The translations under genes were made by a program, and so were the position numbers. 64,000 nucleotides of DNA from the IMG/VR virus record IMGVR_UViG_3300037851_001014, positions 1-64,000 of that record. One strand, given 5' to 3'. Under the pieces are notes generated by a model that was given only the letters and a program-made list of their open reading frames with translations, had not been told where the DNA came from and did no database searches. Position 1 is the stretch's first letter. Each line of letters starts with the position of its first letter. Shown here piece after piece: positions 13,957 through 57,974 of the stretch. This DNA is from a virus. Lineage: Duplodnaviria; Caudoviricetes.

Positions 13957-13977
13957 TTACCATTCCTCCATAATCAC

Positions 13978-14391: not shown

Positions 14392-14706
14392 GATGAAATA
14401 CAATCCACCAAGCCTCATGAACAGCATGCCAAAACATACCTGGTCGGCTATTCCAAATTACAGCCCAGGCAAATGATAATCTGTCTCTCATTTTTTTCTC
14501 CCTACTTAGTAGCAATATGGAATACCACCTAAATCAAAAAATGTTCGAAAGAGATTGAGTTCATTCTATACATAGCACAAGCAAACAAATGGCTATTGTT
14601 ACTGCAAGCAACACATAGCCAATGCAACCTTTCATTAAGAGAACCATGTTTGTAGATATTTATACTTATCAATTACCGTAATCTTCAACATTATATTGTG
14701 CATGAT

Positions 14707-15665: not shown

Positions 15666-15723
15666 ATGTCAAGCAGAATTGACCAATCGGCAAAAATCCA
15701 ACTACTCCCATACTGTCTCTTGC

Positions 15724-16062: not shown

Positions 16063-16934
16063 TCTTGGTCTCCTCTATACGGAATGCATTCTCCTTCGAT
16101 CCATTCATCTCCATCCCATACTTGCCAGGAATTCCTGGCGTATGACCATATTGTTCCATGGTCCCCAAAGCCCACGGACTCTGGCACTTCTTCTCCCGGC
16201 GGGAGTGCAACCCACAGGAACTGGTCCTCCGGTCCTGTTTCACTCCCAAAGTAGTAAAACAGGAGCTTTGTCAGTACCATTCCCTTTGGAGGAATGGGAA
16301 CAAATTCCTTTACCGGCTCTAGCGAGGAGCCAGCTTTGTCTACCCACTCCGCCCACTCCCAGTCATCCAGACTAGGAACGCCACCTTCTGGAGTCCAATT
16401 CTCTGGGCTCTGAACCCGGAAATTTGTCTTCCCTCCACCACCCCTGGTGGTAGAGAAATTCCAGCCGGTTTCCGTCACGGCCAGAATCACATTCTGCATA
16501 TCCGGGTCCCAGTTCCTTGAACGATATCGTTCTGGTGTTTTTATATCCACCCAGAATACAATACCGCCGCCTTCCTGATATCTAAAGGCAGCCTCTCTCC
16601 GAGAACCTAACCACATACTGTGATCGTCCAAACAAAACCATGCTACACCATTGTAGTCCATGATTTCTTTACAAATAGGACACCTGGGATTGTCCTTCTG
16701 TCGATTGGCAGAGTCAGCCATCGCTAACTCCGCCATGATTGTGCCAAATCCTTTGGTCATTTTTTCTCCTATAAAAGTTACCACACGTGGACGAGGGCTA
16801 TGCGTCCAAACCGCCCATTCTTCTGTGCTGCCGGCACATTCTTTGCCACCAACGACGCTTGCCACCTTCACTGGGGTGGAGATTATCCCCAAGGTCAATA
16901 TACCCCACATAAAGTCCCTCGTGGTATATCTCAA
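16059..16934 (-). CDS. hypothetical protein with CxxC Zn finger, Trp/Pro-rich
   Basis: Long ORF with RCPICKE..WFCLDDH; true start probably internal (MTKG or MAEL). Confidence 0.7.
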   Translation of the reverse strand: MRYTTRDFMWGILTLGIISTPVKVASVVGGKECAGSTEEWAVWTHSPRPRVVTFIGEKMTKGFGTIMAELAMADSANRQKDNPRCPICKEIMDYNGVAWFCLDDHSMWLGSRREAAFRYQEGGGIVFWVDIKTPERYRSRNWDPDMQNVILAVTETGWNFSTTRGGGGKTNFRVQSPENWTPEGGVPSLDDWEWAEWVDKAGSSLEPVKEFVPIPPKGMVLTKLLFYYFGSETGPEDQFLWVALPPGEEVPESVGFGDHGTIWSYARNSWQVWDGDEWIEGECIPYRGDQE

Positions 16935-17013
16935 TCAGGGAGTCAATCGCCGAGGCATAACTGCTCAAGTACTTTATTGATTGCAGTTATGCTCTCATTG
17001 TTCTCCTGCCAGC

Positions 17014-17042
17014 ATGATACCGCACGGTATCTATGCTGTCAA
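17014..17042 (-). promoter_or_regulatory. sigma70-type promoter with a palindromic operator in the spacer
   Basis: - strand TTGACA (17042-17037), 17-nt spacer, TATCAT (17019-17014). Palindrome GATACCG-CA-CGGTATC overlaps the spacer and -10. Confidence 0.8.
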
Positions 17043-17044
17043 GG

Positions 17045-17202
17045 GTTCAGATAACATCTGAACTGTTGCAGCCGGTCGCCACAAACCCCTGGAGGTCTGG
17101 GCGACCGGCAGTTACCCCATGCGCTTCCAGTTAGAGCGAACTGGCACGTAAGCGCAGGTCAGGCGCAAGGGCGGTCGCCACACAAAAAACGGGCGACCGC
17201 CC
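17045..17202. other. cluster of four intergenic hairpins, two of them related
   Basis: GTTCAGAT/ATCTGAAC; GCCGGTCGCC/GGCGACCGGC; GCGCTT-CCAGTT/AACTGG-(bulge)-AAGCGC; GGGCGGTCGCC/GGCGACCGCCC. Confidence 0.8.
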
Positions 17203-17235
17203 ACAGGCTCTGGCTAACGAATCAAAGCTGCTAGA

Positions 17236-18177
17236 TTACAGCAGCTCGATCGTGTAACCGTGTGCAACCCAATCGGCAACCTTTTTGGCAGCAGCACTCA
17301 CTGCCTCTGGGCTGCCGGGCTTGAAGTTCTGGAATAGTACGCCAGACTTCATGCCCGTTGGATAACACACACGGTAGGACTTGCCTTTCGGCAAGCCTGC
17401 CAGATCAACCACAGCACCGGTGCTGGTGGGCATTACGGTACTGGACCCCTTCGGCGGAGGAGGGTTGTCCCCGATGCGCCTGAAGGACTTGGCAATTTCT
17501 TGCCTGTCCTTCAGTTGCCGGACAAGAACCTCCGCGGGGTTCGCCGCGGTGGCTACCTCGATCACATTAGCCGCCATGTTGGCGGACTTTGGACCAAGGC
17601 TTACACCGAGCGCCGCTCCATCTGCCCAGGCGAACAGAGCCCTGCAGAACGCGAACGGGTTCGAGCTGTCCGCGTCTGGGTCTGTCTGATCAGACCCCGC
17701 GAAATCCCATTCTGCGTCGTAGCTCGCTTTCGCGAACTCGCCGTCGAACATGCGCAATTTCTGCACATTGCCCGACGCAGGCAGAACGTGATCCGGGATC
17801 ACGATCGTTTTACCATCAACGACGAGGTCGTTGAGGTAATCGCCACCAACCCATCCGACAAATCCGGTGCCGTGTTTAAACGTCACCTTCTTTGCCGATG
17901 TCAGGAAGATCTGGTTGCCCAGAATCCAGCTTTTAGCAATGATGCGTCGCATCGCGGCCAACGCCGAAAGCGCACCAGGCAACTCTTTGATATAGAGCTC
18001 CTGATCGCCCCAGCGATCATCGCTAATTGTCTGCCCGGGGTGGGCCAGTAGGAGGTTCCCGTAGGTTCCCTCCTCGTTCATCGCGAATGAAAGGACAAAG
18101 TCCTTAGTACCCGCGATGACATTCATGCTGAGACGAGTCCCAGCAGCAGGCGTGGTTTTGGTGGTTGAGATATCCAT
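17236..18177 (-). CDS. hypothetical early protein
   Basis: 313 aa, GC-rich codons, RBS AAGGA; no motif recognised. Confidence 0.85.
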   Translation of the reverse strand: MDISTTKTTPAAGTRLSMNVIAGTKDFVLSFAMNEEGTYGNLLLAHPGQTISDDRWGDQELYIKELPGALSALAAMRRIIAKSWILGNQIFLTSAKKVTFKHGTGFVGWVGGDYLNDLVVDGKTIVIPDHVLPASGNVQKLRMFDGEFAKASYDAEWDFAGSDQTDPDADSSNPFAFCRALFAWADGAALGVSLGPKSANMAANVIEVATAANPAEVLVRQLKDRQEIAKSFRRIGDNPPPPKGSSTVMPTSTGAVVDLAGLPKGKSYRVCYPTGMKSGVLFQNFKPGSPEAVSAAAKKVADWVAHGYTIELL

Positions 18178-18189
18178 ATATTGGTTTCC

Positions 18190-18411
18190 TTACCGACCGG
18201 GCCAGCCGAAGTTCTCCTCAGACAGCAGGAGCTCGGCTTCAAACTTGGAGAGAGCGTCCTCAAGAGACGTCCCTCCGCAGGTACAATCAGGATCGTCTGA
18301 CAGCCAGACGACCCACTCATTCAAGCCAACCTGCTTCACTGAAACAGGCTGATCCTGAATCATCAACTCCTGTACCCCCTTGGAGTTGGCGAGGGCCGGA
18401 ATCCCGGACAT
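18190..18411 (-). CDS. HicB-like antitoxin N-terminal fold protein
   Basis: WVVWLSDDPDCTCGGTSLEDALSKFEAEL resembles HicB (YvaxxPDlPGCxtxGxTxeEAl); no C-terminal DNA-binding domain. Confidence 0.5.
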   Translation of the reverse strand: MSGIPALANSKGVQELMIQDQPVSVKQVGLNEWVVWLSDDPDCTCGGTSLEDALSKFEAELLLSEENFGWPGR

Positions 18412-18413
18412 GG

Positions 18414-19670
18414 CTAGTTGTCCACGTCCGGGATGTCCTTCCCGGCCCGCGGTTGCCCGCGGTCGGTGCTGCGGCCCGCAGCGCGCAGACCCAAGGCGCG
18501 CTGCATAGCTGCGCCCATTGAGTCCGACAGGCCGCCGCGCCCGCGGGTGTGGTAGCGGATTACGGACGTAACTTTCGCGTCCTTCTCCGCCGCCCCCGCG
18601 AGCTTGCGCGCCTTCGCACAGGCTCCCCAGGCGTCGGCCAATTTCGGCCGAGCCTTTTGGCGCTGCGAATAAAATCGCAACGCCGTTACTGCCGCGACCA
18701 GCCTGCGAACAGGCAGGTCGATGCGGACCTTCTGCCCGTCGAGGAGCGTGTACTCCTCTCTCAAACCGGCAGCTCCTAGGAGCTGCCGTATCGCATCCTC
18801 GGTTGCCGAGTCATACAACTCGGCCTTTTCCGGGCCTGTTAGGTCCATCTTTGAAACGATCTTGTACCGCCCGGAGGCGGCCAAGACCGTGAAAGGAACG
18901 AGGTGCATTTCCTCGCCCTCTCTCGTTTCAAAGACAGTCCTTCCATCAAGGATCGCTGCCAGTACGCTAGCGTGGTGGTCGATCTGATCGTCCACCAGCC
19001 GCTTTGCAGCGGCGATCTTATCGGCGGCCTGCTTTTCGAGCAGGCCGGCCTGTTCGGCGACCGCGGTGCGGTCGCGCTTCAGGAGAGCAGCTACGGTCTT
19101 ATCTGACCGTGCTGCCGCGATCCAGGCTTCCCGAGCGGCAATTGCCCGCTCGAGAACCTCTAGCTTAGCCTTGGCGGCATATTTGCTCGCCAAGGCTAGC
19201 TTTTCCTTCAGGAGGGCGATTTCGCCCTCCTTCGCCTGGATCCCGGTCACCACTGCTTTTGCAGCGGCGACCTCCGCATCGCGCTCCGCCCGGCGCTTCT
19301 CCTCAGCGGCTTTCGCCGTCGAGATGAGCGCATTGATACCCTTGAGGGTATCCTCAAAGGCATCCTCGTCCTGGAAGCAGTCTATCAGGGACTGAAGTTC
19401 CGCAGTTCGTACATGGAACTGCAGAGCCTCGGCTCTGATAGTCTTGATTGAGGAGGGTTCAGGCGCAGGCGCAGGCTCGGGCTCGGGCTCGGAGTGGCGA
19501 CTGCCGTCGCCCTCCAGCAGTCCGACAGGCTTTGGGGCAGGTTTCCTGCCCCGGACAGGCTTCTGGGCGGGAGTTGCGGTCCCTTGCCCAGCGGATCTCG
19601 CGGCGTACCGCGAGTTGGCTTTCATCTTAGCCAACTCGGCCGCGATTTCCTTCGCATTTCTTCCGGACAT
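18414..19670 (-). CDS. Ala/Lys-rich coiled-coil hypothetical early protein
   Basis: 418 aa, Pro-rich linker PEPEPAPAPEP, long heptad-like helices; very GC-rich. Confidence 0.8.
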   Translation of the reverse strand: MSGRNAKEIAAELAKMKANSRYAARSAGQGTATPAQKPVRGRKPAPKPVGLLEGDGSRHSEPEPEPAPAPEPSSIKTIRAEALQFHVRTAELQSLIDCFQDEDAFEDTLKGINALISTAKAAEEKRRAERDAEVAAAKAVVTGIQAKEGEIALLKEKLALASKYAAKAKLEVLERAIAAREAWIAAARSDKTVAALLKRDRTAVAEQAGLLEKQAADKIAAAKRLVDDQIDHHASVLAAILDGRTVFETREGEEMHLVPFTVLAASGRYKIVSKMDLTGPEKAELYDSATEDAIRQLLGAAGLREEYTLLDGQKVRIDLPVRRLVAAVTALRFYSQRQKARPKLADAWGACAKARKLAGAAEKDAKVTSVIRYHTRGRGGLSDSMGAAMQRALGLRAAGRSTDRGQPRAGKDIPDVDN

Positions 19671-30541: not shown

Positions 30542-31927
30542 ATGGCTGTTACTGCACAAGCTGGGATTTTCGGGTTTGGACCTCAGGGACAGAAAGGCAC
30601 CGAGGCGAGTACGTACTACAAGCACAAGGCGATGGATATCGACCTTGGGCCGATCGATGATACTCGTTTGGGTGCTCTGGAAATTGGCTCTGGGCCATTC
30701 CCGACCTTTCCATACAAAGCTGGCTATGTGGTCGCCGGAGGCGCTGACCTTCAACCTCGCCTGGAAGATACCCTGGGATGGCTGTTTTATGCAGCTATGG
30801 GTGATCTTTCTACTGTTCAGGTTGGTGGCGATGCTGCCTATGACCACACCTTCAAGCCTCTCGCGGCAGATCTGTCTGCAGTGAAATGGCTTTCTGCTCG
30901 GAAGTATATTCCGAAGAAAGACAACAACGCAACGACTGATCTTGGCGAGAAATTCGTTGACTGCAAATTGCTGGGTATCAACCTGGCTTTCGAAAACGAT
31001 CAACCGGTTCGTGCACGCCTCGATTTTGAGGGACTGGCCTACGAACCCGTTCCGGATCCCTCCGGATGGGGATGGGGCAATGCTGCCTACGAGGACTACC
31101 AGTCCGTTCCGGTTGGCTGCGTCGCTGGCGGATACGTCAAGTTCACCGGCGCTGGCTTGACTGACGAAGCATTGCCCGTTGTTCGAGCAGCTGTGAGTAT
31201 CCAGAACGTTCCCTTGGATCTTCGCCAAGAAAAGATCATTGGATCGCCAACCCCCGAGGACATCACTGTTGTCGAGCGGCGTGTAACTTTCGATCTTTTG
31301 GTGAAGTGGAACAAGCCTGATATGTACTTAGCTGTTCAGACCAACGACTTCGACGGCACCGCCTGGAGCTCAACACCTTTGGTTGGTGAAGTCGAGTTGT
31401 ACATGCTGGCATCGTCTGTTATCGGCGCGACTTCTCACAAGTACGCCTTGACGATCAATGCCCCAGAAGTTATGATGCAGCTGAATGGGCCTCCGACGAT
31501 GGCAGCCGGGCAGGCAGTTATGCTGCGCTTGCTGGGTACTGCAATCGAGCCCAGCTCCGGCAGCTACACGACCGTGGTCATTCGCAACGGCGTAACCTCC
31601 TACTCCTGGCCTGCCGGCGGCGTTGATGCCCTGGCTCTGGATAGCAGCGTTCCGACCGACGGTGGAACTGGCATCTCCGTGTCTGCCGATCAGACCCTCA
31701 CCTTCAATAACCAACTCATCGAGAGCGCACCCACTCACGTGGTGTTGATGAAGGCCTCCGATGGCTCGATCGTTGCTAGTACCAAGACGCTCAGCGGCAG
31801 CCGCCTGGTTGTCACGATCAACCCAACCAGCAACCTGAGTGCGTCCACCGAATACATCATCTCGTACGCGGTGGAGGACATCTACGGCCAAAGCCTGGTC
31901 GGTGCGATCAACTTCACGACTGCGTAA
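30542..31927 (+). CDS. major tail tube protein with C-terminal Ig-like domain
   Basis: 461 aa; siphoviral tube-like N-terminus, then SVPTDGGTGISV...TLTFNNQL...VTINPTSNL...Y (Big_5-like). Confidence 0.8.
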   Translation: MAVTAQAGIFGFGPQGQKGTEASTYYKHKAMDIDLGPIDDTRLGALEIGSGPFPTFPYKAGYVVAGGADLQPRLEDTLGWLFYAAMGDLSTVQVGGDAAYDHTFKPLAADLSAVKWLSARKYIPKKDNNATTDLGEKFVDCKLLGINLAFENDQPVRARLDFEGLAYEPVPDPSGWGWGNAAYEDYQSVPVGCVAGGYVKFTGAGLTDEALPVVRAAVSIQNVPLDLRQEKIIGSPTPEDITVVERRVTFDLLVKWNKPDMYLAVQTNDFDGTAWSSTPLVGEVELYMLASSVIGATSHKYALTINAPEVMMQLNGPPTMAAGQAVMLRLLGTAIEPSSGSYTTVVIRNGVTSYSWPAGGVDALALDSSVPTDGGTGISVSADQTLTFNNQLIESAPTHVVLMKASDGSIVASTKTLSGSRLVVTINPTSNLSASTEYIISYAVEDIYGQSLVGAINFTTA

Positions 31928-32478: not shown

Positions 32479-32795
32479 TATCCCGGAAATTGCGTGAGCT
32501 CGAAGCAATTCTCTGGGACTACTACGGGCAGCTAAACGAGATAGCTGCTGGCGTAAAGCCCAAGCCAGAAGATGTCATAGAGAAACCGGAAGCCTTGATG
32601 CGCTATGAGCAAGTCAGGGCACTCAACATTCCTTACGTAGCCGGTGGCCTTGAGGATCAACCCTACATAACGCTCATGGAAGACGGCGTAGTTGAGATGT
32701 TTCTGAAAGCGTGGAAGGGAATCCAGAAAAGGCAGGAGCAACAATGGCAGCAAGTATCGGACCACCAAGCGGAGAAGACTTTGCTAGGACCCTAG
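32466..32795 (+). CDS. -1 frameshift extension of the tail chaperone (GT-like)
   Basis: Slippery GGGGGAA at 32466-72; the -1 frame is open from there through 32490..32795. Confidence 0.75.
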   Translation, partial: GGRIVSRKLRELEAILWDYYGQLNEIAAGVKPKPEDVIEKPEALMRYEQVRALNIPYVAGGLEDQPYITLMEDGVVEMFLKAWKGIQKRQEQQWQQVSDHQAEKTLLGP

Positions 32796-35700
32796 AAGAA
32801 CTTATGGGGGACGAGTATCGTGTTCGCTATATGGGCGAAACCAGATACAATATTGTGCGCTCCAGCCCGCGAGGTGGGCCCAATGGGACTCCTGCTACCA
32901 TTTCTGGGAACTTCAGTTTTGACTTTTGGTCTGCGACTCGTTTCAAGAGCCAGTTTGGTGCAAATAAAGGTTCTGTTGAATATGCTCCGGTGGTGAAGCC
33001 AGATCCTTACGAAGAGAGAGGCTTTGTCGTTCCTGGTGGCATCACATCTGTTGTCGAGAGAAACGAGGAAGATAGAAAGAAGTATATCTCTTCTCACTTC
33101 GTAGAAAATCCAGTAACGAGGTTGGTAAACACACTGGTTTCTGCGTCTGATAGGACTCTTGAAGCAAGGGCGCGCGGCAGAGCAACCAGCACCTGGGAAG
33201 GCGCTGCCATGAACATTCTCTCCGAAGGGGCTCCTGGATCGGAAGAATATGCAGATGTAGCAGGCGGAACGCGGTTTGTAAATAGAAACAACATGTCGAT
33301 GGTGCGTTCTGCATCAAACATGCTTATTCTGCAAACCATTACCCCAGAGGATGCCGGAAAAGACGAAAGGTCGATGCGTTCCAGCGCACTGGAATCGCTC
33401 AAGTCCTGGATTAGTACTCCGGCAGTGGCGCGCGATAGCGGAAATTTCCTGGCCTTCAACCAACTTGGTCTGGCGATTGGGCGCAAAAATGCCAATACAC
33501 TGATACCTTATTCTCAGGGTTATAGATCTGTAACTGATCCGTCCGGCCGCGAATACGCTGAAGTTTATCTCCCTGGCGACCCCTCTAAGTCGAGCAAACA
33601 CTATAATGTCATGTACGGCCGACGCGAGGGCGTTACGCCGTTAGATGCCACAGGTGTGCCAATTCAAGCAGGAGCTATTCGGGGCGCTCGGGGGTGGGGC
33701 ATCAGGAGAACTACAGCAGATTATCGTGGGCAGGTACCGCAAGAGAGTTGGATTGGTGGCTTGCTGATGACCAGGTCGCTGCCAATTCCGGGAACCGGAC
33801 AGTATTTTCCACAGAATGTGTCTTCTGCTGGAATATCGTCTGTCGGGTTTGATACCGTGCGAGAATTGCCCGTAACCAGTGATATCGGCGGGCTTCTTTC
33901 CGGGACTGTCAAATACACACCCGCGTCCGACTTGATGGGCAGGCATCACCCCGGAATGACCAGAATGAGCTATGGCACACTGGAGGCACAGGGAGAGCTG
34001 CCAATTTCTCTCTCGACGAGAAACAAGGCGGGCGGCTTCAGACCAAGTAATCAGCAGTTGGTGTTGCCGCAGTATTACGATCCAAAAACCGGCCTGGGTA
34101 TGGTCTACAGCGAGGGAAACGCCAGGCTCGGGACAGAGATCACCGAGACACAGGCTGCGGCATTGTCCAAGTCGCTGGGAATTGACGTTCGGCTTGACCC
34201 CTTTTCTGATCGTGCGATGTGGCGTTCCGAGGGGTTCCTATCCACGGGCGCGAAAGTTGCCGGTCTTGGACTTAAGACGGCCTTGACCGCCATGCTTGGA
34301 AGACCGTCAATTGGGATTGGGAAAACTGATCTTCCTGTAGATATAGCCACCGGCGAAGTGAAGTCATTCCCCACGATGCTTCTTTCCAACTTTCCCACTC
34401 TTTCCAGGGCAAGGCAAGCCGATCTTTTGCGTGAAACTGGCGCGCGCCTGAATAACCCCGCTTTCACACGAGCGGCGTCGCGTGTCCAGAAAGGCGGATA
34501 TGGCGAAAGATTGGACATGGAAAGACTTGCAGAGGACATTTATGGCGTTGGAGCTCCAGTAAACGAGCTCATGAAAGAAGTTTACGGCACTGTCGTTCCC
34601 GGACTAGGAGAGAATCCTACCCAGGTGGAGATAGCCAGATACGCAGCGAGCGATGTTAATCTACGCAATCTTGAGCGGTACGGTATAGGGTTTATCGATC
34701 CCTCAATGGAAAGCAGGGGCGTTCGTGTTCCAGAGCTTAGTTGGCGTGTATCTAAGAAACAGTTCGTAGACCTTGAGCAGGCTTATCTTGCGGCAAACCG
34801 AGAGCGCGTTATAGCTGCCGGTGGCGATCCTAGGAAAATCTCTATCAAGGACGCACGCCAGGCCTTTTTGACAGAATATGGTCTGACGCCCGTGGCTAAC
34901 GAGCCCGGGATGTGGCAAGCGCACACTAAGGCAAGCGGTTTTTATATACGCGGGGCTTTGCCACTTGGGGTTGAGTGGTATGGTGCCGGACAAGTGCACG
35001 CAGAAGAGGCCCAGCTAGTCAATGCTATCTCACCAGAATGGGCTTACCGACTTGGGATTGGGTTGACGCCAGGATCAAAAGGGCGCGGTGGGTATGACAG
35101 AAACATATCACCAACTCGACAGGCGAAAATACTTGCCGCAAAGACTGTTGCGGCAATGTACGCAGATACTCCAATGGGCATAGAGCATTCTGTTGTGACG
35201 GATACAATGGCCGGCAATCTGGTAGCAGATACTGATTTTATGGCCTTGCTGGAGAGAAAGCCAGATAATCCTGGTACTGTTGCCGACTTTGATATCGTAA
35301 GGGAAAGAATGCAGAGGGAGATGGAGATTGCCTACGGGAATAAGGCAGCCAATGTGGACAAGGTTCCTTTGCAGTTCGGAGATCTTGAGGGCGCCTATCT
35401 CCTGCCTGCTGGATCAATCCGGGCCACTATGGCGGTGGATCAGGCTACAGGACAAGATCAAGCCAGACTTCTTGACAGATATTTAGGTACGCTTGGGCGC
35501 GCCTTGAGAGGGCAAGTAGCAGGCAAGCCAGGGGAAATTACGCATAGCCTGTATGGTCTCGCGGACACCTACGCCGAGTCGATGGGCGTAAGCTCACACA
35601 CGAAAAGCGACATGGTAAAAGATTTGATGGGTTCAGATCTCGGATGGTCTGTTGGTCGCTATGGCTGGGCAGGCGAGGTCCAGCAGCACCAAGTCACTGG

Positions 35701-38700
35701 CAGCAAGGCAGTCTGGCTGCAACAGATCAGGGCAGAGATAGCTGAACAGGTTGGCGTTGATACAGAGAACAATCCGCTCACAGATGCCGAGATCGAGGAA
35801 ATATATGGCAGTGTTGCAAATGTCTCTGCGTTTTCAGAGGGTGTTCCTGGCCTAGCAATGCGCTATCCAATCGTTGGCGGTTCCAAAGAATCTGCCCTGG
35901 GCGTTCGTTTTCTAACCCCCGAACAAGCGCAAAAGCAAGGTGTCGCTACTGTGGATACCCCCTTTGGGGATTACTGGAACATATCTACCGGGTTGTCTTC
36001 TATTTTCCAGGGCGACTTCGACTTAGATCAAATGGCGACGCTTATGGGTATAAAAGCGTATCGAGACAAAGGGGGCAAGCTACGCCATTCCTGGACGCAA
36101 CTGGACGAGAAAGGCAATATCGATCCAAAGTTAATGGCCTCTATCAACAGAAGCGCAACCATGAACTACCAGGACCTGCAGCGGAAAATGTTCCCATCGT
36201 CCGCTATGCAGAACAGGTTCAACCCGCTTCTTGGAGCGTTCTCTGATCGGTTCGCCGGTCAGAATGTTGGAGATCTCGGTTTTTCGTACAGGTTGATGCG
36301 TAAGCAAATGGCCGCATCCAGATTTTACAATATAGGCGAGCTGCTCACCGGAACGCATATTGTCCAGAAGGCAGCTGGCGAGGAAATGGGTGCGTCATAC
36401 AACCTGACGCGTGCTCTTGAATCGGCATCTATCATGTCTCGTTGGTCGACGGCAAGTATTCAAAAATCACGCGTCTCGCGTGCGCCAGTCTATCAGCCGT
36501 ACCTTGACAAAAGCACGTCTATTCCGGTATCGATGACTGAGATGTTTAGAACGGCGTATCTCAGCACTCCAGAAGGAGCAATGGCTCCTGAGCTTGGCTG
36601 GGCAACCCCAGAGGCTAAAGAGTTGTCTACCGAGCCTCAGTGGACAAAGAGAAAGATAGCACTGACTCCCGAGAATGCCATGCCGTTTCTGCGAGCTTTA
36701 ACCGAATCTGCCGCGCGTCCTCATGTTGTGCCTGGAAAGTTCGCTGATCTTCCATCGCCCAACCTGCTTGCCCGTGCCCTTGCGCCATACCCAGGGATGG
36801 CTTTTGGAACAATCAAGCCTAGGTACCTGAAAGCCTACAACAGCCAATTCAAGACATGGGAAGATCTTGTCGTAGGTGGTGGTACAGACGAGCAAATAGC
36901 ACAGGCGGGAAAATTCTTCAAGGGCGTGCCACTGGAGGCAGCTATTAAATCTGCCCAGGAGGCTACCTGGGGACTTGGAGAGAGCGATCAAGACTTGCTG
37001 CTCGGCAGACGCACAAAAGGCACTGCGGATGTAGTTGAGGCATGGTACAAACAGAACATTCCAGAAGATTTGCAACAGGTCTATGCCAGTACTCTTGCGC
37101 AGTCCATGATCGGAAAGGCCTACTTCTCGGCGCAGGCTGATGCAACCAAGACGATACCATCCTCATGGGAAAAGTCTGATTTTGGGGCAGAGACTGTTCA
37201 ACGGGCGCGCCGGTGGCGGGTTGGATACGACATGGCGCGTGGCATTGTCCCCGAAATGGGTGCGTTCAAGGAGACCTACGATTGGCTAAGTGGCATCGAT
37301 AGAAGTGTGCGATCCCAGGGAGCGGAGCTTATCTTGCGCATGGGCAAGCTCTTTGGCGCAGCCGAGGCTGTACCTTTGTCAATGGCCGGCTCTCAGATGC
37401 TCTATGAGAAAGCAATGGCAGCTCCAATATCCTTGCGCTCAAGTACCTATGGCGATATCGGGAATCCTGTTTATACGAACAAGCTCGTCGGAGGGAACAA
37501 AAGAGTCGACTCGGGATTATACTCGTCTGTTTTGAGCACGGTGGCGAGCACGCTCAATCTTGGCGGTATGGATGTTAATGCGCTGCAGGCTGCTTTCCTT
37601 CCAAGTGACGAACAAGGGCTTGCGCACATGAGACGCGGGAACAGGTTCGAAGACCGTCTCGCTAAAGTTGCTGGCGAAGCCATGTATCACAGCGGACTGT
37701 CTGGATACGCAAATCTTGGCTCGGGCGATCCAACGAAAGCGGTTTCGTCGGCTTTCTCTCTTGTTGAGGACATAGAGCTTGGGGACGGCCAAAGAACGAC
37801 AGTCGTAATGCACGGAACGCCAGACTTTCTTCTCCCAATTGGCGGCAAACTGTACGAAGTTGAGACCAAGAATCCCCAAAAGCAGGCCGGTACGAAAGCT
37901 GCGCAGATGGAGAAGTACAAGGCGCAGACTGATATGGTTCGCTATATCATAGAGAAAAAGGTTGGTCGCATACTTAATCCAAATTTAGCGCAAGGCTTTA
38001 GGGACAAAGAGGCTGCCGAGCTTAGATCATCTTTGCGTTGGTATATGCCAGAAGAGCAGATTGATGAGGCATACGAAATGCTCCTCGCCCAGGGTGGCGC
38101 TGGCTCGATCTTGTTCAATGTTGGCGCTGACACAGATCTGTACAAAAGCATAATGCACGGGAAAATCGACAAAGCGCATGCTCAAGTCATGAAAGAAGTG
38201 GCGTCTGAAGATAGCCCGTATGTGGTCGAGAGGGTAGAACCTCTTGCGGGCGGACAATACGCAGAGCGTTTTGAGAAAAACAAAATGCGTGCTATCCGGG
38301 AAGTTTACAGCAAGCGCGGCGGTGTCCTCGAAGAGCTTGTTGGACTGTTGTCGCCTGCACAAAAGTTTCACAGAATGCGCCTTGGGCAAAACCCAGACCT
38401 GGCGACCACGTGGCAATCGAGACGAGCAATGGATGTTCTTCAGCGCGCTCGGCATGGACTTCTGTCTCTTGGAAAATACTTCTACGATCTAAGGGAGGCG
38501 GCTCATGCCGCCAGCCCTGGAGCAACGAGAGCGGCAACTCCCGAGGAACAAGCCGCAGCTGCATCTACTCCTCCCCAGCCACCTCCAGTGGCACAAAACG
38601 CATCATCGCCGCGGGCACAAACAGCAACCCCAGGAACAGCACCCGCAAGTCAGACACCAATTACCAACGCCGCAGATATGCCTATTGAGGAACTACGTGC

Positions 38701-41700
38701 ACGGGCTAGCATGCTTGGATTATCCAGGACAGCTGCTGCGAAGAAAACAAAAGAGCAATTGGTTGAGTTTCTCGATCCAGCAAATAAGGACAGGACACCA
38801 GTAGGCCAGAGGCTGAGCAAGTCAAGCATAAGCGATCTTCAGAGAGGTCTACTGGAGGCAGATTCAGCAATGGCTTATGCACCTTACGTGCCTCCTCCTG
38901 CCACGCCTGTTCAGGCAAATCCTGGACCGACTGCAGGAGCCGCGCCCCCTCCTTCAGTCCCGCCAACGCCTGGTGTCAACGCTGCTGCTGCAGCCGCAGC
39001 AACGGCCGGGCTTGCGGCGATGGCTGGTGGTGGTCAACCTGGTAGCCCTGGTGATACAAGTGGTTCCCCGGGACAGCCACCCGAGGGAGGCGGGTTTATC
39101 AAGCCGACCTCAGTGGCGCAGCAGATCGTCGGACTTTACCGCACGCGGGGACAGGCAATCCAGGAGGCAGCAATTGCCCTGCGAACTCAGTTTGGCGTTA
39201 CAGAACGTGGAACTTTGAGGAGAGGTATTACGGGACGCGAGGAAGAATTTGCCCAGGCAGCCCTAAAGCATCAAGAGGCGATTATGGACGCCCAGGCTCT
39301 GGTGGCTATGGGAGTGGCTTTCCAGAAAGGGCCGCGTGGCGTCGATATGGGCTTTCTTGACAAAGATGCTGCTGATATCATAGACAAGGTAACGACAACT
39401 GGCACACCTATGGGGAAAGATCTGTTAGATCTGGAGGGCGCCGGGCAGGAGATGACCAGATATAGCAAAGCGGCGATCAAGAGAGCCAGGCTTGCAAACC
39501 TCGAAAGAAGGCTTGCCACAGGTGGTGTCGGCGACCAGATATCTAGTTGGTTTGGGGATGGTGTTACTCCCATGGATCCTGACGACCTGGCTGCCCAGAT
39601 AGAGAAAAACCCAGCAGCCGCCGAGGCTTTCAGAATTGCTAGGAACTTTTCCAAAAAAGATGCTACCCGTATGGCGAGCGAGTTCCCAAGATCCGCAGCA
39701 CTCATACAGTACACAGAGGGCATGAAGGGCCATCCTGGGTTTGATGCCGCTATCAAAGAAAAGCCCGCTGCGACCAAGTCTCTCATTGCTGATGACGTAA
39801 AGGCGACGTGGGCGGAGAAGTTTACCAGGGCCGCTGACGAAGCCACTGCAGCGCTCAAGAAGTTTAGTGGAGCCGCCCAAAAAACAAGTGATCTCCACGA
39901 GAAAACAGCCCAGGCGTTGAAGGCTCTGAGCATAGAGGAAGCCTACGGCAAGCTCATTACAGCTGCCGCCAAGGTTGGCAAGGAGCCAGAGAAGGACAAC
40001 CTTGGCAGACTCAAGCTATCGCCTACGGGAAGAGCACAGTACGAGAGTCTGACAGCACAGGAGGCCGCCGCGGCTGAGATTGGCGATGTCGAATCGTACC
40101 AAAGCGCCCTGACTGGATTCCAGCAGGCTACTACAGCCCCCACTACCAAGAAAGGGGCTATTGGGAGGCTTGTTGACAGACTTGCTGGGCCTCCTGAACC
40201 AGACGATCCGGCGATCAACATGCGCCGATTCCTGGGTGGCTTTGGCCTGATGTACCTTCGCAGTCTGTGGGGCATTGCGACTGGCGGTCTTGGATACGGT
40301 ATGCAGGAGCGCGCTGAGACAATGCAGCAGCTTGGCGGTCCCTCGGCGCAGATGTTTGGGGCGATATACAGACCGAATGTCCCTGGTGTTGCTTTGAGAA
40401 ACATTATGGGTGCTACTGGCGTAGGCGGAAACCCGCTGCTGCAGTTCCAGGAGATGTATGCACGCACCCCCTTGCTGCAGGACGCAGGTACCGCACTTGG
40501 CGCAGGGCTAGGAACCTATGCTCTTGCCCAGCAGGTCGGAATGTGGAGCGGCAGCAATACCCTAAAGAGCATCCTTGGTAAATGGGCTGTTCCAATCGCA
40601 GCTGGGGTTAGCGCAGCAACGTTGCTGTCTTCCGCTGCCGGAAAGCTGTCAGACACAGAGAGCGTTGGCTACCGTCTTGCTACGGCGCCTGTGCTCGGAA
40701 AATCATTCACCGACGAGTGGGCATACTTGATGGGCAGTCAGCAGCAAAAGGAGCAGATTGGCATCGCAATAGGACAATATGAAAGAATAACAAAGGGTGG
40801 ATTTTCTCAAGGTAGCACCAGGAACATTCGGTCTGTGTCGCAGATGATTCCCGTCGATACTCCAGTAGGAGAGTATTTTGGAACAGTTGAGGAGAAGATC
40901 AGCCTGGCTGCGACCGGACGACCGGACTTGTACAATACTCTTACCGAGGGCCAAAGAGCTAGCACCTATCAGCGTCTGACGCAAGCCCAGATATCGCATT
41001 TTGCCCCACAGTTTTCGGCAGAGGCGAGTCAGGCTGCTATGGATTTTGCCTTTAGAACAAGAGCCGTTATGGGGCAGACAGGAATGCAGACGCTCACGGC
41101 ACGCATCCAGCAGGGTTACTCTCCGCAGATTGCCCAGGCATACATGGCAGCAAGTGGTTATTCTGTAGCCGGAATGTATGCTGGTGCTGCTGGCCCTGGG
41201 ACGCAAGCCAACCTGATGAACTATTACAATACGCTTGCTCCAATGGCCACAACGCAGAACTTGCCGTATCTCGAAGCGGCCATTGGCGTCATGGGAGCGA
41301 CAATTCCCATGAATACCTATATAACCCAGATGGGCATGCGTGGTGCGATCGGCATGGACACCGAGGCATATCAAAAGGCATTGGCTGCCCTGGTACCAGG
41401 AAGCTCGCAATACAACCAATACACTGCCGCAGGTGCTCAATGGGCGCGGCTGCAGGAATTTGGACGTGCAGCATCACCGCCGAATCCTGTAGACTTCACA
41501 ACTATGAATGCTCAGGAAACGCGCCTTGAGGAGCTAAGGCAGGCTGAAATGCAAGAAAGCCTGAACACAGAGGATGCTCTGCAAAGAGCATTGGTTCTCA
41601 GGGGCTTCTCCGCCCAAGACGCCTACGCCTTCACCAGGGGGATTTATACAACAGCGAGGGGCGGCCAGCTGAGCGAGTATGAAACCACCACCGAGCTTGG

Positions 41701-43864
41701 CAGAGAACTGGAAAGACAGCAGCGACTTGGGCTAGTGGAGAAGTGGTTTACCGATCGCGGTGTTTCTGCTCGACAGCGCAAGCAGATGTATGCCCCAGAA
41801 TACGAAAAAATGAGCATCTCTCAACTGCAGCAATACATGCAGAAGCAGAGCGTCGCAGAAGGGCTAGAGAGTGCACTTATCGGTGCAGGCGTAAGCTATA
41901 ACATCAGCGACATTCTGGCCATACCTGGTGGCACTATGCAGCAGGCAGCTGTATCTGCTTCAGTGGCCCAGGAGATTCAAGCGCAAGCTGCCAGCGGAGT
42001 AACTGGTTTTAGCCTGACGCAGCTTTACGAAAACGCAAAAGGAGCGGGGCCTCAAGAGTTTGCTGGTATGGTTTCTACGCAGCAGTGGATGCGCGAGACA
42101 ATGGCTCCCCTGATGCGGCAAACAGGCAGGATGCCAGGATGGGCTGCTGATGCATGGGCAACTAGCGGCCAGAGTGCTGCAAACTGGGGAGCGAACGTTC
42201 CTCGTGCATGGCGGGATATCTATCAAGGTGTTGCCCAATATGACCCCTGGGCATCTACCCAAATGTATGCCTATCAGCAGATGGGAATACAGCCACCCAA
42301 CATCGGATTGCCAGAATTGACTAATCTCCCGTCCGAGATGGTAACACGGGACATCTGGCAAACCGGCCCGATGGCCGGACTTCCGCTCAATGCGCCAATG
42401 TGGACAGTCTCCGGTGCGTCGCACCCCAACTTCCCGCTACTGCAGGCTACTACTGGCGGAGCAGTGAATTGGGGTACTGGCGTAGGCAAGGCATTCTCTC
42501 AGGGATACACGATACCCGGAATGAGCTTCCCCGTTGCAGGCATTATGGGTATGCAGAGTTACATGCAGCAGCTGCAGTATCAGTCTGGCATGGCGCAAAT
42601 CGGCAACCAGCTCGCTCAGCTTAACATGTCGATGGCTTTCCAGACTGGCGTTGGCCTGGATGCATATGCGGGAATAATCAACCCACAGACCAACAAGCCG
42701 TTCGGATTCAATACCGGCCCTTCTAGCTGGAGTATTCCTGGCGTTGGCAGATACACATCTGAGGGCGGTGGCATGTGGGGCATCCAGGATGCCATGCGTA
42801 ACCTAGGTTATGCTCAACAGGAATGGCAGTTTGGTTTTCAGGAACGCCAACTTGGGATGAGTCGCTCGCAGTTTGCCGAGAACTTCTCTCTCAACAGGCA
42901 ACAGACCTTGATGCAGCGTGGCTGGGCAATGCAGGATTGGGGCTACCAGGACACCACCCGCAATCTGCAGTGGCAGTGGCGGCAAGAGGACTATGCCGAA
43001 CAGGCAAGATTCATGACCGGTCGCGATCGGCGTCTTGCAGAGCGCGGAATGAAGCGCGAGACCACCATGTTCAATCTTGAGACTGAACAGATCGATAAAC
43101 AACGCGAGCGGCAGAAAGAGATGTGGAAACTGGAGGACGAGCGCTTCAAGCTGCAGAAGAAACACTTCGAAGAGCAGATGGTCATGCAGGAAGAGCAGCA
43201 AGATATGATGCGCAAGTTCTATGCCGAGCGTATCGCCCTTGAAGAAGAGCAGATCAAGCTGCAGCGTGCCCAGCAGGTTCAGCAGGCGGAATATCAGAAG
43301 CAATCCCTGGGTATCCAGGCGGCCATGCTTGCGGCCCAAAAGGAATACTCAGAGATCCAATCCGGGATCGAGCTTGCTAACTTGGCGATCCAGTCTGGCA
43401 TTGCCGATGTTCAGGCCAAACAGTCCGGACTCGTCACCTTAACCGAGGATAATATAGAAGCTGTGTTTGCCTCGCTAAACGACTGGATTGCTAGAGTTCT
43501 CGGTACTCTAGGCGGGGGACCTCCTGTGCCCACCACCACGAACCCCCCGCATAGTCAGAGTGGCTATATACCAGAAGAGGATATAGAGTCAGATCCGCCC
43601 ACTCACGGCGGTGCGCACGGCACTTTTGTCAGTGCTGGTCAAGGAACCGTTGTCAGCGAGGAGGGGCTAATCGAGTTCTTTACTCCCCAGAACAGCGGCA
43701 CGATAATCCCGCTCAAGTCGTTCAATGCCTGGACAACCACTGTGATGCCATCGCAAAAGCCGGTTGTTGAAACGAGCACACCCAAGACCATAAACATTTT
43801 CATTGGTGATCAACACCTCAAGACGTTTGTGCTGGACGCGATAGACGAAGCGCTGGAGGCATAG
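32744..43864 (+). CDS. giant tape measure protein fused to a two-barrel RNA polymerase-like region and a PD-(D/E)XK nuclease
   Basis: AGGAG RBS and ATG at 32744; canonical TMP position. C-terminal GG...VVSEEG.IEFFTP..SGTIIP TMP motif; GDFDLDQMA 36011-37; RYP 35861-69; GAKVAGLGLK 34247-76; GTPDF...YEVETK 37814-70. Confidence 0.85.
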   Translation: MAASIGPPSGEDFARTLEELMGDEYRVRYMGETRYNIVRSSPRGGPNGTPATISGNFSFDFWSATRFKSQFGANKGSVEYAPVVKPDPYEERGFVVPGGITSVVERNEEDRKKYISSHFVENPVTRLVNTLVSASDRTLEARARGRATSTWEGAAMNILSEGAPGSEEYADVAGGTRFVNRNNMSMVRSASNMLILQTITPEDAGKDERSMRSSALESLKSWISTPAVARDSGNFLAFNQLGLAIGRKNANTLIPYSQGYRSVTDPSGREYAEVYLPGDPSKSSKHYNVMYGRREGVTPLDATGVPIQAGAIRGARGWGIRRTTADYRGQVPQESWIGGLLMTRSLPIPGTGQYFPQNVSSAGISSVGFDTVRELPVTSDIGGLLSGTVKYTPASDLMGRHHPGMTRMSYGTLEAQGELPISLSTRNKAGGFRPSNQQLVLPQYYDPKTGLGMVYSEGNARLGTEITETQAAALSKSLGIDVRLDPFSDRAMWRSEGFLSTGAKVAGLGLKTALTAMLGRPSIGIGKTDLPVDIATGEVKSFPTMLLSNFPTLSRARQADLLRETGARLNNPAFTRAASRVQKGGYGERLDMERLAEDIYGVGAPVNELMKEVYGTVVPGLGENPTQVEIARYAASDVNLRNLERYGIGFIDPSMESRGVRVPELSWRVSKKQFVDLEQAYLAANRERVIAAGGDPRKISIKDARQAFLTEYGLTPVANEPGMWQAHTKASGFYIRGALPLGVEWYGAGQVHAEEAQLVNAISPEWAYRLGIGLTPGSKGRGGYDRNISPTRQAKILAAKTVAAMYADTPMGIEHSVVTDTMAGNLVADTDFMALLERKPDNPGTVADFDIVRERMQREMEIAYGNKAANVDKVPLQFGDLEGAYLLPAGSIRATMAVDQATGQDQARLLDRYLGTLGRALRGQVAGKPGEITHSLYGLADTYAESMGVSSHTKSDMVKDLMGSDLGWSVGRYGWAGEVQQHQVTGSKAVWLQQIRAEIAEQVGVDTENNPLTDAEIEEIYGSVANVSAFSEGVPGLAMRYPIVGGSKESALGVRFLTPEQAQKQGVATVDTPFGDYWNISTGLSSIFQGDFDLDQMATLMGIKAYRDKGGKLRHSWTQLDEKGNIDPKLMASINRSATMNYQDLQRKMFPSSAMQNRFNPLLGAFSDRFAGQNVGDLGFSYRLMRKQMAASRFYNIGELLTGTHIVQKAAGEEMGASYNLTRALESASIMSRWSTASIQKSRVSRAPVYQPYLDKSTSIPVSMTEMFRTAYLSTPEGAMAPELGWATPEAKELSTEPQWTKRKIALTPENAMPFLRALTESAARPHVVPGKFADLPSPNLLARALAPYPGMAFGTIKPRYLKAYNSQFKTWEDLVVGGGTDEQIAQAGKFFKGVPLEAAIKSAQEATWGLGESDQDLLLGRRTKGTADVVEAWYKQNIPEDLQQVYASTLAQSMIGKAYFSAQADATKTIPSSWEKSDFGAETVQRARRWRVGYDMARGIVPEMGAFKETYDWLSGIDRSVRSQGAELILRMGKLFGAAEAVPLSMAGSQMLYEKAMAAPISLRSSTYGDIGNPVYTNKLVGGNKRVDSGLYSSVLSTVASTLNLGGMDVNALQAAFLPSDEQGLAHMRRGNRFEDRLAKVAGEAMYHSGLSGYANLGSGDPTKAVSSAFSLVEDIELGDGQRTTVVMHGTPDFLLPIGGKLYEVETKNPQKQAGTKAAQMEKYKAQTDMVRYIIEKKVGRILNPNLAQGFRDKEAAELRSSLRWYMPEEQIDEAYEMLLAQGGAGSILFNVGADTDLYKSIMHGKIDKAHAQVMKEVASEDSPYVVERVEPLAGGQYAERFEKNKMRAIREVYSKRGGVLEELVGLLSPAQKFHRMRLGQNPDLATTWQSRRAMDVLQRARHGLLSLGKYFYDLREAAHAASPGATRAATPEEQAAAASTPPQPPPVAQNASSPRAQTATPGTAPASQTPITNAADMPIEELRARASMLGLSRTAAAKKTKEQLVEFLDPANKDRTPVGQRLSKSSISDLQRGLLEADSAMAYAPYVPPPATPVQANPGPTAGAAPPPSVPPTPGVNAAAAAAATAGLAAMAGGGQPGSPGDTSGSPGQPPEGGGFIKPTSVAQQIVGLYRTRGQAIQEAAIALRTQFGVTERGTLRRGITGREEEFAQAALKHQEAIMDAQALVAMGVAFQKGPRGVDMGFLDKDAADIIDKVTTTGTPMGKDLLDLEGAGQEMTRYSKAAIKRARLANLERRLATGGVGDQISSWFGDGVTPMDPDDLAAQIEKNPAAAEAFRIARNFSKKDATRMASEFPRSAALIQYTEGMKGHPGFDAAIKEKPAATKSLIADDVKATWAEKFTRAADEATAALKKFSGAAQKTSDLHEKTAQALKALSIEEAYGKLITAAAKVGKEPEKDNLGRLKLSPTGRAQYESLTAQEAAAAEIGDVESYQSALTGFQQATTAPTTKKGAIGRLVDRLAGPPEPDDPAINMRRFLGGFGLMYLRSLWGIATGGLGYGMQERAETMQQLGGPSAQMFGAIYRPNVPGVALRNIMGATGVGGNPLLQFQEMYARTPLLQDAGTALGAGLGTYALAQQVGMWSGSNTLKSILGKWAVPIAAGVSAATLLSSAAGKLSDTESVGYRLATAPVLGKSFTDEWAYLMGSQQQKEQIGIAIGQYERITKGGFSQGSTRNIRSVSQMIPVDTPVGEYFGTVEEKISLAATGRPDLYNTLTEGQRASTYQRLTQAQISHFAPQFSAEASQAAMDFAFRTRAVMGQTGMQTLTARIQQGYSPQIAQAYMAASGYSVAGMYAGAAGPGTQANLMNYYNTLAPMATTQNLPYLEAAIGVMGATIPMNTYITQMGMRGAIGMDTEAYQKALAALVPGSSQYNQYTAAGAQWARLQEFGRAASPPNPVDFTTMNAQETRLEELRQAEMQESLNTEDALQRALVLRGFSAQDAYAFTRGIYTTARGGQLSEYETTTELGRELERQQRLGLVEKWFTDRGVSARQRKQMYAPEYEKMSISQLQQYMQKQSVAEGLESALIGAGVSYNISDILAIPGGTMQQAAVSASVAQEIQAQAASGVTGFSLTQLYENAKGAGPQEFAGMVSTQQWMRETMAPLMRQTGRMPGWAADAWATSGQSAANWGANVPRAWRDIYQGVAQYDPWASTQMYAYQQMGIQPPNIGLPELTNLPSEMVTRDIWQTGPMAGLPLNAPMWTVSGASHPNFPLLQATTGGAVNWGTGVGKAFSQGYTIPGMSFPVAGIMGMQSYMQQLQYQSGMAQIGNQLAQLNMSMAFQTGVGLDAYAGIINPQTNKPFGFNTGPSSWSIPGVGRYTSEGGGMWGIQDAMRNLGYAQQEWQFGFQERQLGMSRSQFAENFSLNRQQTLMQRGWAMQDWGYQDTTRNLQWQWRQEDYAEQARFMTGRDRRLAERGMKRETTMFNLETEQIDKQRERQKEMWKLEDERFKLQKKHFEEQMVMQEEQQDMMRKFYAERIALEEEQIKLQRAQQVQQAEYQKQSLGIQAAMLAAQKEYSEIQSGIELANLAIQSGIADVQAKQSGLVTLTEDNIEAVFASLNDWIARVLGTLGGGPPVPTTTNPPHSQSGYIPEEDIESDPPTHGGAHGTFVSAGQGTVVSEEGLIEFFTPQNSGTIIPLKSFNAWTTTVMPSQKPVVETSTPKTINIFIGDQHLKTFVLDAIDEALEA

Positions 43865-56808: not shown

Positions 56809-56995
56809 CCTTCACGTAACTCCCCCTGATCTGCTGCGGCTCAATCACAAATCCCTCTCTATCTGCGATGATAGAGAGGGATTTATATTTGCATCCTCTA
56901 GAATTACAGGGGCGGTAAATGATGTTACGGCTCACGTACTCAACGCTTTCGAGCACTAATTCAACCCCACAGGATGGACAATAGGCTACGGTCAT
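56795..56995 (-). CDS. small Zn-ribbon-like protein
   Basis: 66 aa, YCPSCG...PCNSRGC. Confidence 0.45.
   Translation of the reverse strand: MTVAYCPSCGVELVLESVEYVSRNIIYRPCNSRGCKYKSLSIIADREGFVIEPQQIRGSYVKVMPR
56849..56884. terminator. 15-bp inverted repeat at the convergence point (likely bidirectional terminator)
   Basis: AAATCCCTCTCTATC-TGCGAT-GATAGAGAGGGATTT, 40 nt after the last + strand stop. Confidence 0.7.
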
Positions 56996-57648
56996 TGAGT
57001 GTACCTCGTCTGTTTGCCGTATTCCAACTCATACTGTTCGATGAATTTCTGGCAGAAGCGTTCGCCGGTAGGCGTCCAGCTCCATCCAGCAGCGTGGTGG
57101 TCGGGATTCTTCCAGACCGCAAGATCTCGATCCATCAAGTTGGCTCGCAACTCGCGGAATTCCAGTCCGTACACTCTGCCCGGACCCATCCATACGCCCT
57201 CTGCGGTCTGCCCAGACAGACCACCGCCGCGCAGGAAAGCATAGAACTGATCCTCGGTGCCAGGGATGTTGATGCGTTTCTGCGTGGGCCGAAGCGTATC
57301 TGGCTTGACATCTAGCATCCACATGGATGTTTCCGGCTTGCCAACTACGCCATCATTGTTGATATCGACGCCAGTAAACATTTCAAGCTGGCTGCGGATC
57401 CTCACCCACAAGTGAACCAAGAAGAACCACATCGCGTTTGCCCCCGCCGCACCGGCAACCAGCATGGACACGATCACCCATTTGAAAGACAGCCCGGCGG
57501 CAATCGCCAGGGCCATAGACAGCACTGCCAGAAGGCCGCCGGTGAATAAAGCGAAGACGATGTTCGTTACCGCTGCCTGAGTGCTCAGGTAGTGGATGCG
57601 AACGTCTGGGGAATTAAGCTCCCTGTTTGTAGATGTGTCTGTTCCCAT
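56992..57648 (-). CDS. two-TM membrane protein with cytoplasmic winged-helix-like domain
   Basis: Likely start MGTDT at 57648; two TM helices, DINNDGVVG, C-terminal G.SWTPTG. Confidence 0.7.
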   Translation of the reverse strand: MGTDTSTNRELNSPDVRIHYLSTQAAVTNIVFALFTGGLLAVLSMALAIAAGLSFKWVIVSMLVAGAAGANAMWFFLVHLWVRIRSQLEMFTGVDINNDGVVGKPETSMWMLDVKPDTLRPTQKRINIPGTEDQFYAFLRGGGLSGQTAEGVWMGPGRVYGLEFRELRANLMDRDLAVWKNPDHHAAGWSWTPTGERFCQKFIEQYELEYGKQTRYTQ

Positions 57649-57974
57649 AGTTCCCTCACGGCATGTCTCATTTGCTTGTCTGGTAGAGAGCTGCCATCCC
57701 GAGAGAAACCAAACCACCAGGTGGCATTGTCTATAGGATAATGCACATTCCAGTATTGTGCAAGCAGGAATAATGCCTGTGGATCGCCTGTGCGCACCCA
57801 CATCGTACCATCGTGTTCAGTGCGGGAAGGGTTGAAGAAATCAATAAAGATGTGCACCAGGTGCCATTTAGATCTCTCGGTCTCTTGCAAGGGCGGTCTC
57901 GATACAACGAACCACACACCCGCCTCACGAAACACATCTTTCCGGTATTTCCATGCGTACTTGCTATCGACCAT
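57585..57974 (-). CDS. hypothetical protein
   Basis: 129-aa aromatic-rich ORF. Confidence 0.55.
   Translation of the reverse strand: MVDSKYAWKYRKDVFREAGVWFVVSRPPLQETERSKWHLVHIFIDFFNPSRTEHDGTMWVRTGDPQALFLLAQYWNVHYPIDNATWWFGFSRDGSSLPDKQMRHAVRELWEQTHLQTGSLIPQTFASTT

Follow-up and report, generated by a model that had tools for sequence, protein, structure and literature searches.

The 64,000-nucleotide stretch analysed here (the window; positions 1 to 64,000 of the IMG/VR virus record IMGVR_UViG_3300037851_001014) contains a giant open reading frame (ORF), and residues ~1568-1795 of its product are best read as a real, probably active and metal-dependent nuclease of the PD-(D/E)XK superfamily. 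The domain would belong to the group of RecB-, AddA-, Cas4- and YqaJ-like nucleases, would lack an iron-sulphur (Fe-S) cluster, and is located ahead of the ruler part of a protein that appears to be a tape measure; the task preferred for it is the processing of the phage's own genome end. This reading is accepted on balance, and its parts differ in strength. It is very likely that the fold is a genuine PD-(D/E)XK nuclease fold. It is probable that the domain is catalytically active, and by analogy with known tail proteins we lean towards a nuclease that the tape measure carries to or into the cell. End processing as its specific task is put forward tentatively.

The record has 82,822 bases, is classed as linear and ~80% complete, and comes from an uncultured lineage. 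The giant ORF (32711-43864, + strand) runs through 3,717 uninterrupted codons from a GTG start at 32711 in the ORF list and translation; the gene-caller version starts at an ATG at 32804 and is 3,686 amino acids (aa) long. Residue numbers are counted from GTG 32711.

The nuclease domain and its relatives

The boundaries of the domain (37412-38095, + strand; residues 1568-1795) come from the alignments A2 and A3, a leave-one-out profile, an AlphaFold model made with A3 and a comparison with VIA-align. An earlier note, made from the letters of the window, had placed four nuclease motifs within 37620-37960, and all four are indeed found there, in order and in the one ORF. Motif I, G-x-x-F-E, spans G1643-E1647 (37637-37651) within a stretch of residues 1639-1650 (37625-37660). 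The putative catalytic Asp of motif II, D1705 (37823-37825), ends the HGT­PDF stretch but for one residue (residues 1701-1706, 37811-37828), and motif III is the E-x-K of E1718 and K1720 (37862-37870) in the stretch YEVETK (residues 1715-1720, 37853-37870). Motif IV, Q1739 ... Y1745, lies on the next helix (37925-37945; stretch of residues 1735-1745, 37913-37945). Ahead of motif I there is also an N-terminal small-residue/Ser motif (37439-37462, residues 1577-1584), the counterpart of h-x-A-S-E-L-G in relatives. It is present in 12 of 12 members, in a part where the alignment is loose and the predicted local distance difference test (pLDDT) score of the model is ~30.

A whole-length search with the giant protein gave three distant homologues of 2,851-3,121 aa, and their alignment then fetched 20 IMG/VR loci and 27 JGI metagenome loci. 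From IMG/VR and the JGI metagenomes there are 28 distinct giant homologous proteins of 2.8-4.0 thousand aa, and 12 of these carry the nuclease domain: the window's protein, P0005, L002, L004, L005, L009, L013, L014, L018, L021, L025 and L032. The position of the domain is constant in the carriers, ~450-550 residues after a G-D-x-D-x-D loop. The hallmark of the superfamily is the Asp of motif II with the (D/E)-x-K of motif III after it, and these are kept in 12 of 12 domains; free variation of the D, E and K residues among homologues, which the earlier note had named beforehand as the sign of a wrong assignment, is not what the carriers show. In A3, an alignment of 11 domain sequences with 11-24% identity to the window's copy and a mean column identity of 23%, no columns other than G1643, D1705 and K1720 are invariant or nearly so, and every member has Glu or Asp at position 1718. 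The Gly of motif I is the same in all 11 sequences, and its Glu is found in 10 of the 12 members, with His in two (L004 and L021). The D1705 column, near-invariant in A3, is Asp throughout the 12 if the assignment in L021 is made by eye, and in motif III the Lys is invariant and the first position Glu or Asp in the whole set.

A leave-one-out profile made from the 11 other proteins matches residues 1635-1742 with 25.7 bits and a per-sequence E of 6.1e-10, by far the best match in the window's giant protein. Because of this match, and because the catalytic columns are the only conserved ones, the resemblance goes beyond chance. In the same way, a 10-member profile recovers two members left out of its building at the same position (L032, E 9.5e-25; L025, E 2.8e-5). 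Leave-one-out profiles tie in P0005 and L014 more weakly and L004 and L021 hardly at all, and by their sequences the last two may be a separate sub-type. These two (L004:8174-8710 and L021:8171-8623) are a shorter variant of the nuclease with His for Glu in motif I, as in Cas4 and AddB, and the variant is either very diverged or separately recruited at the same site.

The link to known families runs through the relatives. The Pfam model PDDEXK_1 (PF12705, cut-off 22 bits) is passed by L013 (25.5 bits), by L004 (22.9 bits) and by L032 (22.7 bits), and L025 reaches 16.3 bits; the matches cover profile positions ~108-208. No PF12705 match at E 0.1 came from the corresponding 601-residue stretches of ten relatives without the nuclease, which served as a control. 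The PHROG families 'exonuclease' and 'CRISPR/Cas system associated' match some members, at most two each, with a best E of 1.3e-5. RecB/AddA/AddB-type domains (PF12705; AddA in PDB 3u44 and 4ceh) have the same order of motifs, that is a G-x-x-x-E/H helix, an Asp, (D/E)-x-K and a Q...Y helix, and the AddA nuclease domain in these two structures is the best whole-domain structural match to the window's domain, at weak VIA-align scores. The 12 homologues, the leave-one-out profile and the PF12705 matches of relatives thus support the RecB-like PD-(D/E)XK nuclease that the earlier note had proposed. Its wording was 'RecB/Cas4-type', and only the first half of that label stands. The 3,717-aa protein contains no cysteine at all, and the 12 aligned nuclease domains show none either, so an Fe-S cluster of the Cas4/AddB type is absent. 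Cas4 (Saccharolobus SSO0001, PDB 4ic1; ACE1, PDB 9iab) is defined by a four-Cys Fe-S cluster that is impossible here, there is no CRISPR context, and Cas4 proper (PF01930) was rejected on the missing cysteines. Judged by its residues, the domain belongs with the RecB/AddA-like nucleases of the superfamily and not with Cas4.

Another phage-borne branch of the superfamily are the Lambda Exo/YqaJ-like exonucleases (PF09588), which resect ends for annealing. The small-residue/Ser motif ahead of motif I may resemble one in these enzymes. They are separate proteins, made early and teamed with an annealing protein, and not parts of the virion. PF09588 found nothing at E 10 in the whole record and does not occur among the Pfam matches of 11 members.

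An AlphaFold prediction from the single sequence was uninformative (pLDDT 36.7). With A3, AlphaFold2 gave a model with a pLDDT of 64.5 and a predicted template modelling score (pTM) of 0.64; pLDDT reaches 70-90 in blocks that cover the strands and the C-terminal helices. Here motif I is on helix 67-87 (model numbering), D1705 starts strand 139-143, and E1718 and K1720 come directly after the partner strand 146-150; D1705 and the E-x-K are on the two strands of one hairpin, and Q1739 and Y1745 are on helix 162-188 (pLDDT 80-90 from model residue 171). As modelled, this layout of motifs is that of the PD-(D/E)XK core, and the predicted secondary structure fits the fold that had been proposed. 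The Foldseek check suggested in the earlier note came out less well: with the model, PDB and BFVD returned nothing at E 0.001 or better, and a phage RecB-like exonuclease was at rank 20 (E 0.62). VIA-align scores were weak, with the AddA nuclease domain and Cas4 among the matches, and the three best re-aligned PDB chains were all RecB-family nucleases.

The tape-measure-like protein and its neighbours

The ORF list, the gene order and the 28 distinct giant homologues describe the product of 32711-43864 (+ strand) as a giant tape-measure-like tail protein with an N-terminal enzyme part. From its gene position and its build it is judged to be a tape-measure protein: it follows tube-like and chaperone-like genes, it has a hydrophobic Gly-rich region, and its C-terminal region is rich in Gln and Glu. 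No curated tape-measure model in Pfam or PHROGs matched the whole protein or five pieces of it.

The front part of the protein is RNA-polymerase-like. Its D-F-D-L-D loop (36014-36028, + strand) holds D1102, D1104 and D1106, all invariant in the alignment A1, and these three, together with K515 and K522 (window 34247-34279), do not change among four very distant full-length homologues, a pattern of residues that fits a two-barrel polymerase. A G-D/N-x-D-x-D/E loop is located ~970-1300 residues into 25 of 29 distinct full-length homologues, with one further copy at 1483. The family profile gave no polymerase match against all PDB sequences. The nuclease domain lies where the earlier note had put it, between the RNA polymerase region and the tape, or more exactly between the D1102/D1104/D1106 loop and a flexible Pro/Ala-rich linker followed by the ruler. 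The co-occurrence with the DFDxD motif that the same note had wanted checked is one-sided: in all 12 carriers the nuclease follows the loop at the constant distance, and 16 of the 28 proteins keep the polymerase-like module without any nuclease.

Directly after the nuclease domain come helices and then a stretch rich in Pro, Ala, Gly and Ser (38498-39100, + strand; residues ~1930-2130, from the composition in 100-aa blocks), which marks the boundary between enzyme part and ruler part. In every relative with both the nuclease and a clear linker of this kind, the linker is the later of the two. Relatives without the nuclease have it several hundred residues closer to the N-terminus, and in them the interval from the D-x-D-x-D loop to a conserved hydrophobic motif tends to be shorter. 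For these reasons nuclease and polymerase-like module are seen as one N-terminal enzyme part that the linker ties to the ruler. Residues 1989-2018 (window 38675-38764), which lie in the linker with a Pro/Ala-rich stretch on either side, give a weak match to a Rho_N/SAP-like helix-extended-helix (E 0.11, below the cut-off), and these residues could be a nucleic-acid-binding tether.

Further along, a Gly-rich hydrophobic region (40223-40630, + strand) contains the conserved G-G-F-G-L-M-Y, which was the pattern used for fetching relatives, and one hydrophobic helix predicted in a hydropathy scan (2621-2639). The best-conserved part of the family is a C-terminal region rich in Gln, Glu and Arg (42518-43600, + strand; residues ~3270-3630), with 33-49% identity to P0004-P0006 and many invariant columns in A1. 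On a tree of this C-terminal region the nuclease carriers are scattered: ~7 changes would be needed and well-supported branches force at least two, with the deep branches unresolved. P0004, the closest relative of the window's protein (it groups with it and with L002), is itself without the domain. The domain is an optional module of this phage group. The record of one carrier, L018 (IMGVR_UViG_3300013138_001783), is classed as a provirus by IMG/VR.

At 82.8 kb, the window's record is probably nearly full-length, since the complete relatives L010, L011 and L015 in IMG/VR are 82-85 kb long and have direct terminal repeats. On the + strand, from ~22.8 kb, there are a portal gene (PHROG 64, Pfam SPP1_portal), a capsid protein gene, the gene for a 461-aa Ig-like protein, small ORFs, the giant ORF, and then ORFs of 143 and 1,401 aa. 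The 461-aa product (30542-31927, + strand) is tail-tube-like with a C-terminal Ig-like domain (Pfam Big_5, E 2.5e-10), and the small ORFs between its gene and the giant ORF are chaperone-like. Two genes for C5 cytosine DNA methyltransferases (PF00145) are present in the record, one complete (record 79038-80000, - strand, 244 bits) and one cut by the start of the record (window 4-249, - strand). The leftward arm (2324-19670, - strand) is a very unexplored gene set, with nine of its larger ORFs having no Pfam match at E 0.001, as has one more at 56992-57801 (- strand); GC content is lower in this arm, 43-47% over 1-16 kb.

The closest known parallel is gp96 of the Thermus phage P23-45 (also P74-26, G20c and TSP4), in which a tape-measure protein is fused to a virion RNA polymerase (Nat Commun 2024, PMC10770324). 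Like gp96, the protein described here is a giant tape-measure protein of a long-tailed phage, with an N-terminal D-x-D-x-D signature and an enzyme part ahead of membrane and ruler parts, and the genomes are in both cases ~83-86 kb long with terminal repeats. There are also differences. For gp96 a metallopeptidase and membrane domains are described, and nuclease, Cas4 or RecB are not mentioned (PMC10770324), whereas Pfam and PHROG scans of the giant protein and its pieces found no metallopeptidase domain here; gp96 has 5,002 residues and the present protein 3,717, and no sequence similarity between the two is detectable. The earlier note had called the architecture of polymerase, nuclease and tape undescribed. 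This has to be narrowed, as the fusion of polymerase and tape is already published for gp96; it is the added nuclease that was not found in the literature searched. Full-text searches for a nuclease within a tape-measure protein gave nothing relevant, and absence there is not proof. Both the enzyme fold and the cargo-carrying kind of tape measure are known; their combination, with polymerase, nuclease and ruler in one protein, was not found described.

Possible tasks of the nuclease

Several observations weigh against an active nuclease that processes the phage's own ends. The motifs of the window's protein are by themselves weak evidence and not beyond chance: a permissive regular expression that asks for the four motifs one after another matches 278 of 2,000 shuffles of the giant protein (14%), and it also matches unrelated places in relatives, so that the support is comparative. 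The spacing in motif IV is unusual, as at least seven relatives have Q-x-x-x-Y and the window's copy has Q1739 with the Tyr at +6, two residues later. Residues 1-32 and 90-111 of the model are unreliable. The window's own copy matches no sequence model from Pfam, PHROGs or PDB, with the whole protein or with five pieces, and no cultured relative was found: blastn and tblastn against 50,697 GenBank phages were empty for the front part, the C-terminal part and the nuclease domain of L013. Finally, 16 of 28 relatives lack the domain; among these are four 100%-complete genomes of 82-89 kb, and three of the four carry direct terminal repeats. This means that the domain is not essential for entry, transcription or circularisation in the group, which weakens the case for own-end processing.

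Other direct searches were equally sparse. Residues 1564-1830 gave no Pfam family even at E 10, and PF12705 gave no match at E 10 in the whole record, the window's copy being below the curated Pfam cut-off. A phmmer search of the domain against 1.84 billion representative proteins returned itself and P0003 only, and P0003 was rejected as a repeat artefact. A word-indexed search of long proteins with the domain region and a jackhmmer run from the single domain against the relatives each returned nothing apart from the query, and IMG/VR scans found nothing, whether the query was the domain alone or the whole protein alone. With the A3 profile there was no stand-alone relative among proteins of 83-466 aa, and PDB sequences gave chance matches only (E 0.2 or worse). 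A scan of GTDB contigs (185,579 species genomes) found no prophage relative, and the ESM Atlas offered weak leads only (Tox-REase-9 at 0.85, rank 28). Two other explanations were considered and rejected. An inserted intein or homing endonuclease does not agree with a domain that is as diverged as its flanks, has no Cys and is of a type not usual for intein endonucleases, and a fusion created by sequencing error does not agree with an ORF that is continuous in 12 independent contigs.

The preferred task, own-end processing, would work as follows. In analogy to RecB-type nucleases, D1705, E1718 and K1720 would bind metal and activate the attacking water. The N-terminal end of a tape measure points towards the head. 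For this reason the enzyme part is expected to come out last as the tape measure is released from the tail during infection, beside the leading end of the DNA, and to act on DNA where the genome enters; the model here is what is known of siphovirus tape measures and what has been proposed for P23-45 gp96. RecB-like nucleases mostly act at DNA ends. This, and the linear, terminally repeated genomes of the group, make the incoming genome's own end the preferred substrate. A 5' resection of that end could ready it for annealing of the terminal repeats, or could turn it into a poor substrate for host RecBCD or AddAB. Proteins that are delivered with the DNA and deal with genome ends on entry are known from other phages, namely gp2 of T4 and the ejection protein gp44 of 80alpha (PMC7290940). 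They bind the ends and protect them, are not nucleases and have no homology to the domain here.

A different task would be that of an accessory weapon. In this case the injected nuclease cuts the DNA of the host, of plasmids or of competing phages, as shut-off or counter-defence, while the phage's own DNA is modified or shielded. This is rather doubtful in itself, and because the domain is optional it is nearly as likely as own-end processing. The pattern is as expected for an arms-race accessory: the domain is present in only 12 of 28 proteins and scattered on the tree, P0004 as the closest relative does without it, and the four complete nuclease-less genomes have no replacement, as neither a PF12705 gene nor a family copy was found elsewhere in them (a positive control was run). 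The C5 DNA methyltransferases of the record would also suit a phage that spares its own DNA, as the earlier note had supposed, but nothing links them to the domain, and RecB/Cas4/YqaJ-like nucleases are not known to read methylation. Enzymes of this kind mostly require DNA ends or single-stranded DNA, and the circular chromosome of a host has no ends. In addition, few copies of the tape measure enter per infection.

The nuclease could also serve the polymerase to which it is fused, either by stripping a strand at the leading end to give a single-stranded template or promoter, or by cutting RNA in transcript processing or primer making. The polymerase-like module invariably precedes the nuclease, both of them ahead of the linker, and the virion polymerase of P23-45 is clamp-less and is proposed to stay at the pore, transcribing DNA during entry (PMC10770324). 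Yet 16 of 28 relatives keep the D-x-D-x-D module without a nuclease, gp96 works without one as far as no nuclease is mentioned for it (PMC10770324), there is no sign here that the polymerase part needs single-stranded DNA, and most RecB-like domains are DNases. Such a role is improbable. It can be joined with own-end processing in a picture where nuclease and polymerase-like module are one injected machine: 5' resection would hide the 3' strand from RecBCD or AddAB and hand it as a single-stranded template to a clamp-less polymerase, which would make the first transcripts. This combination, too, has a low probability.

It is very improbable that the fold was kept and cutting lost, so that the domain now has a structural or DNA-end-binding role and attaches the genome end to the tape measure. 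Some ejection proteins do bind genome ends and protect them, 80alpha gp44 (PMC7290940) among them, and the atypical spacing of motif IV in the window's copy would agree with a loss of activity. However, it is usually the acidic or Lys residues that are lost when a PD-(D/E)XK domain becomes inactive, whereas the D, E/D and K are kept here in 12 of 12 at ~20% identity. Least probable of all is a chance or convergent resemblance in a linker domain of some other fold, given the leave-one-out profile match, the three homologues above the PDDEXK_1 cut-off with ten negative control stretches, the conservation confined to catalytic columns and the RecB-family chains among the re-aligned structures.

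Tape measures have long been viewed as rulers and channel formers, and it was only in 2024 that a virion RNA polymerase was shown in one. The present family is a case of a nuclease that has diverged too far for databases to annotate it directly and that can be recognised only by way of its metagenomic relatives. The presence of the domain in 12 of 28 proteins, and its absence from similar complete genomes, provide a natural comparison set for its purpose. If it is true that a conserved, active nuclease is part of the same polypeptide, some long-tailed phages would deliver at least two nucleic-acid enzymes via the tail before any phage gene is expressed. This bears on how a linear genome survives the end-dependent nucleases of the host, on how the first transcripts are made, and on how a host may be disarmed at time zero. 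Should nuclease and polymerase-like module really act as one machine, this would be an undescribed way of starting a phage infection.

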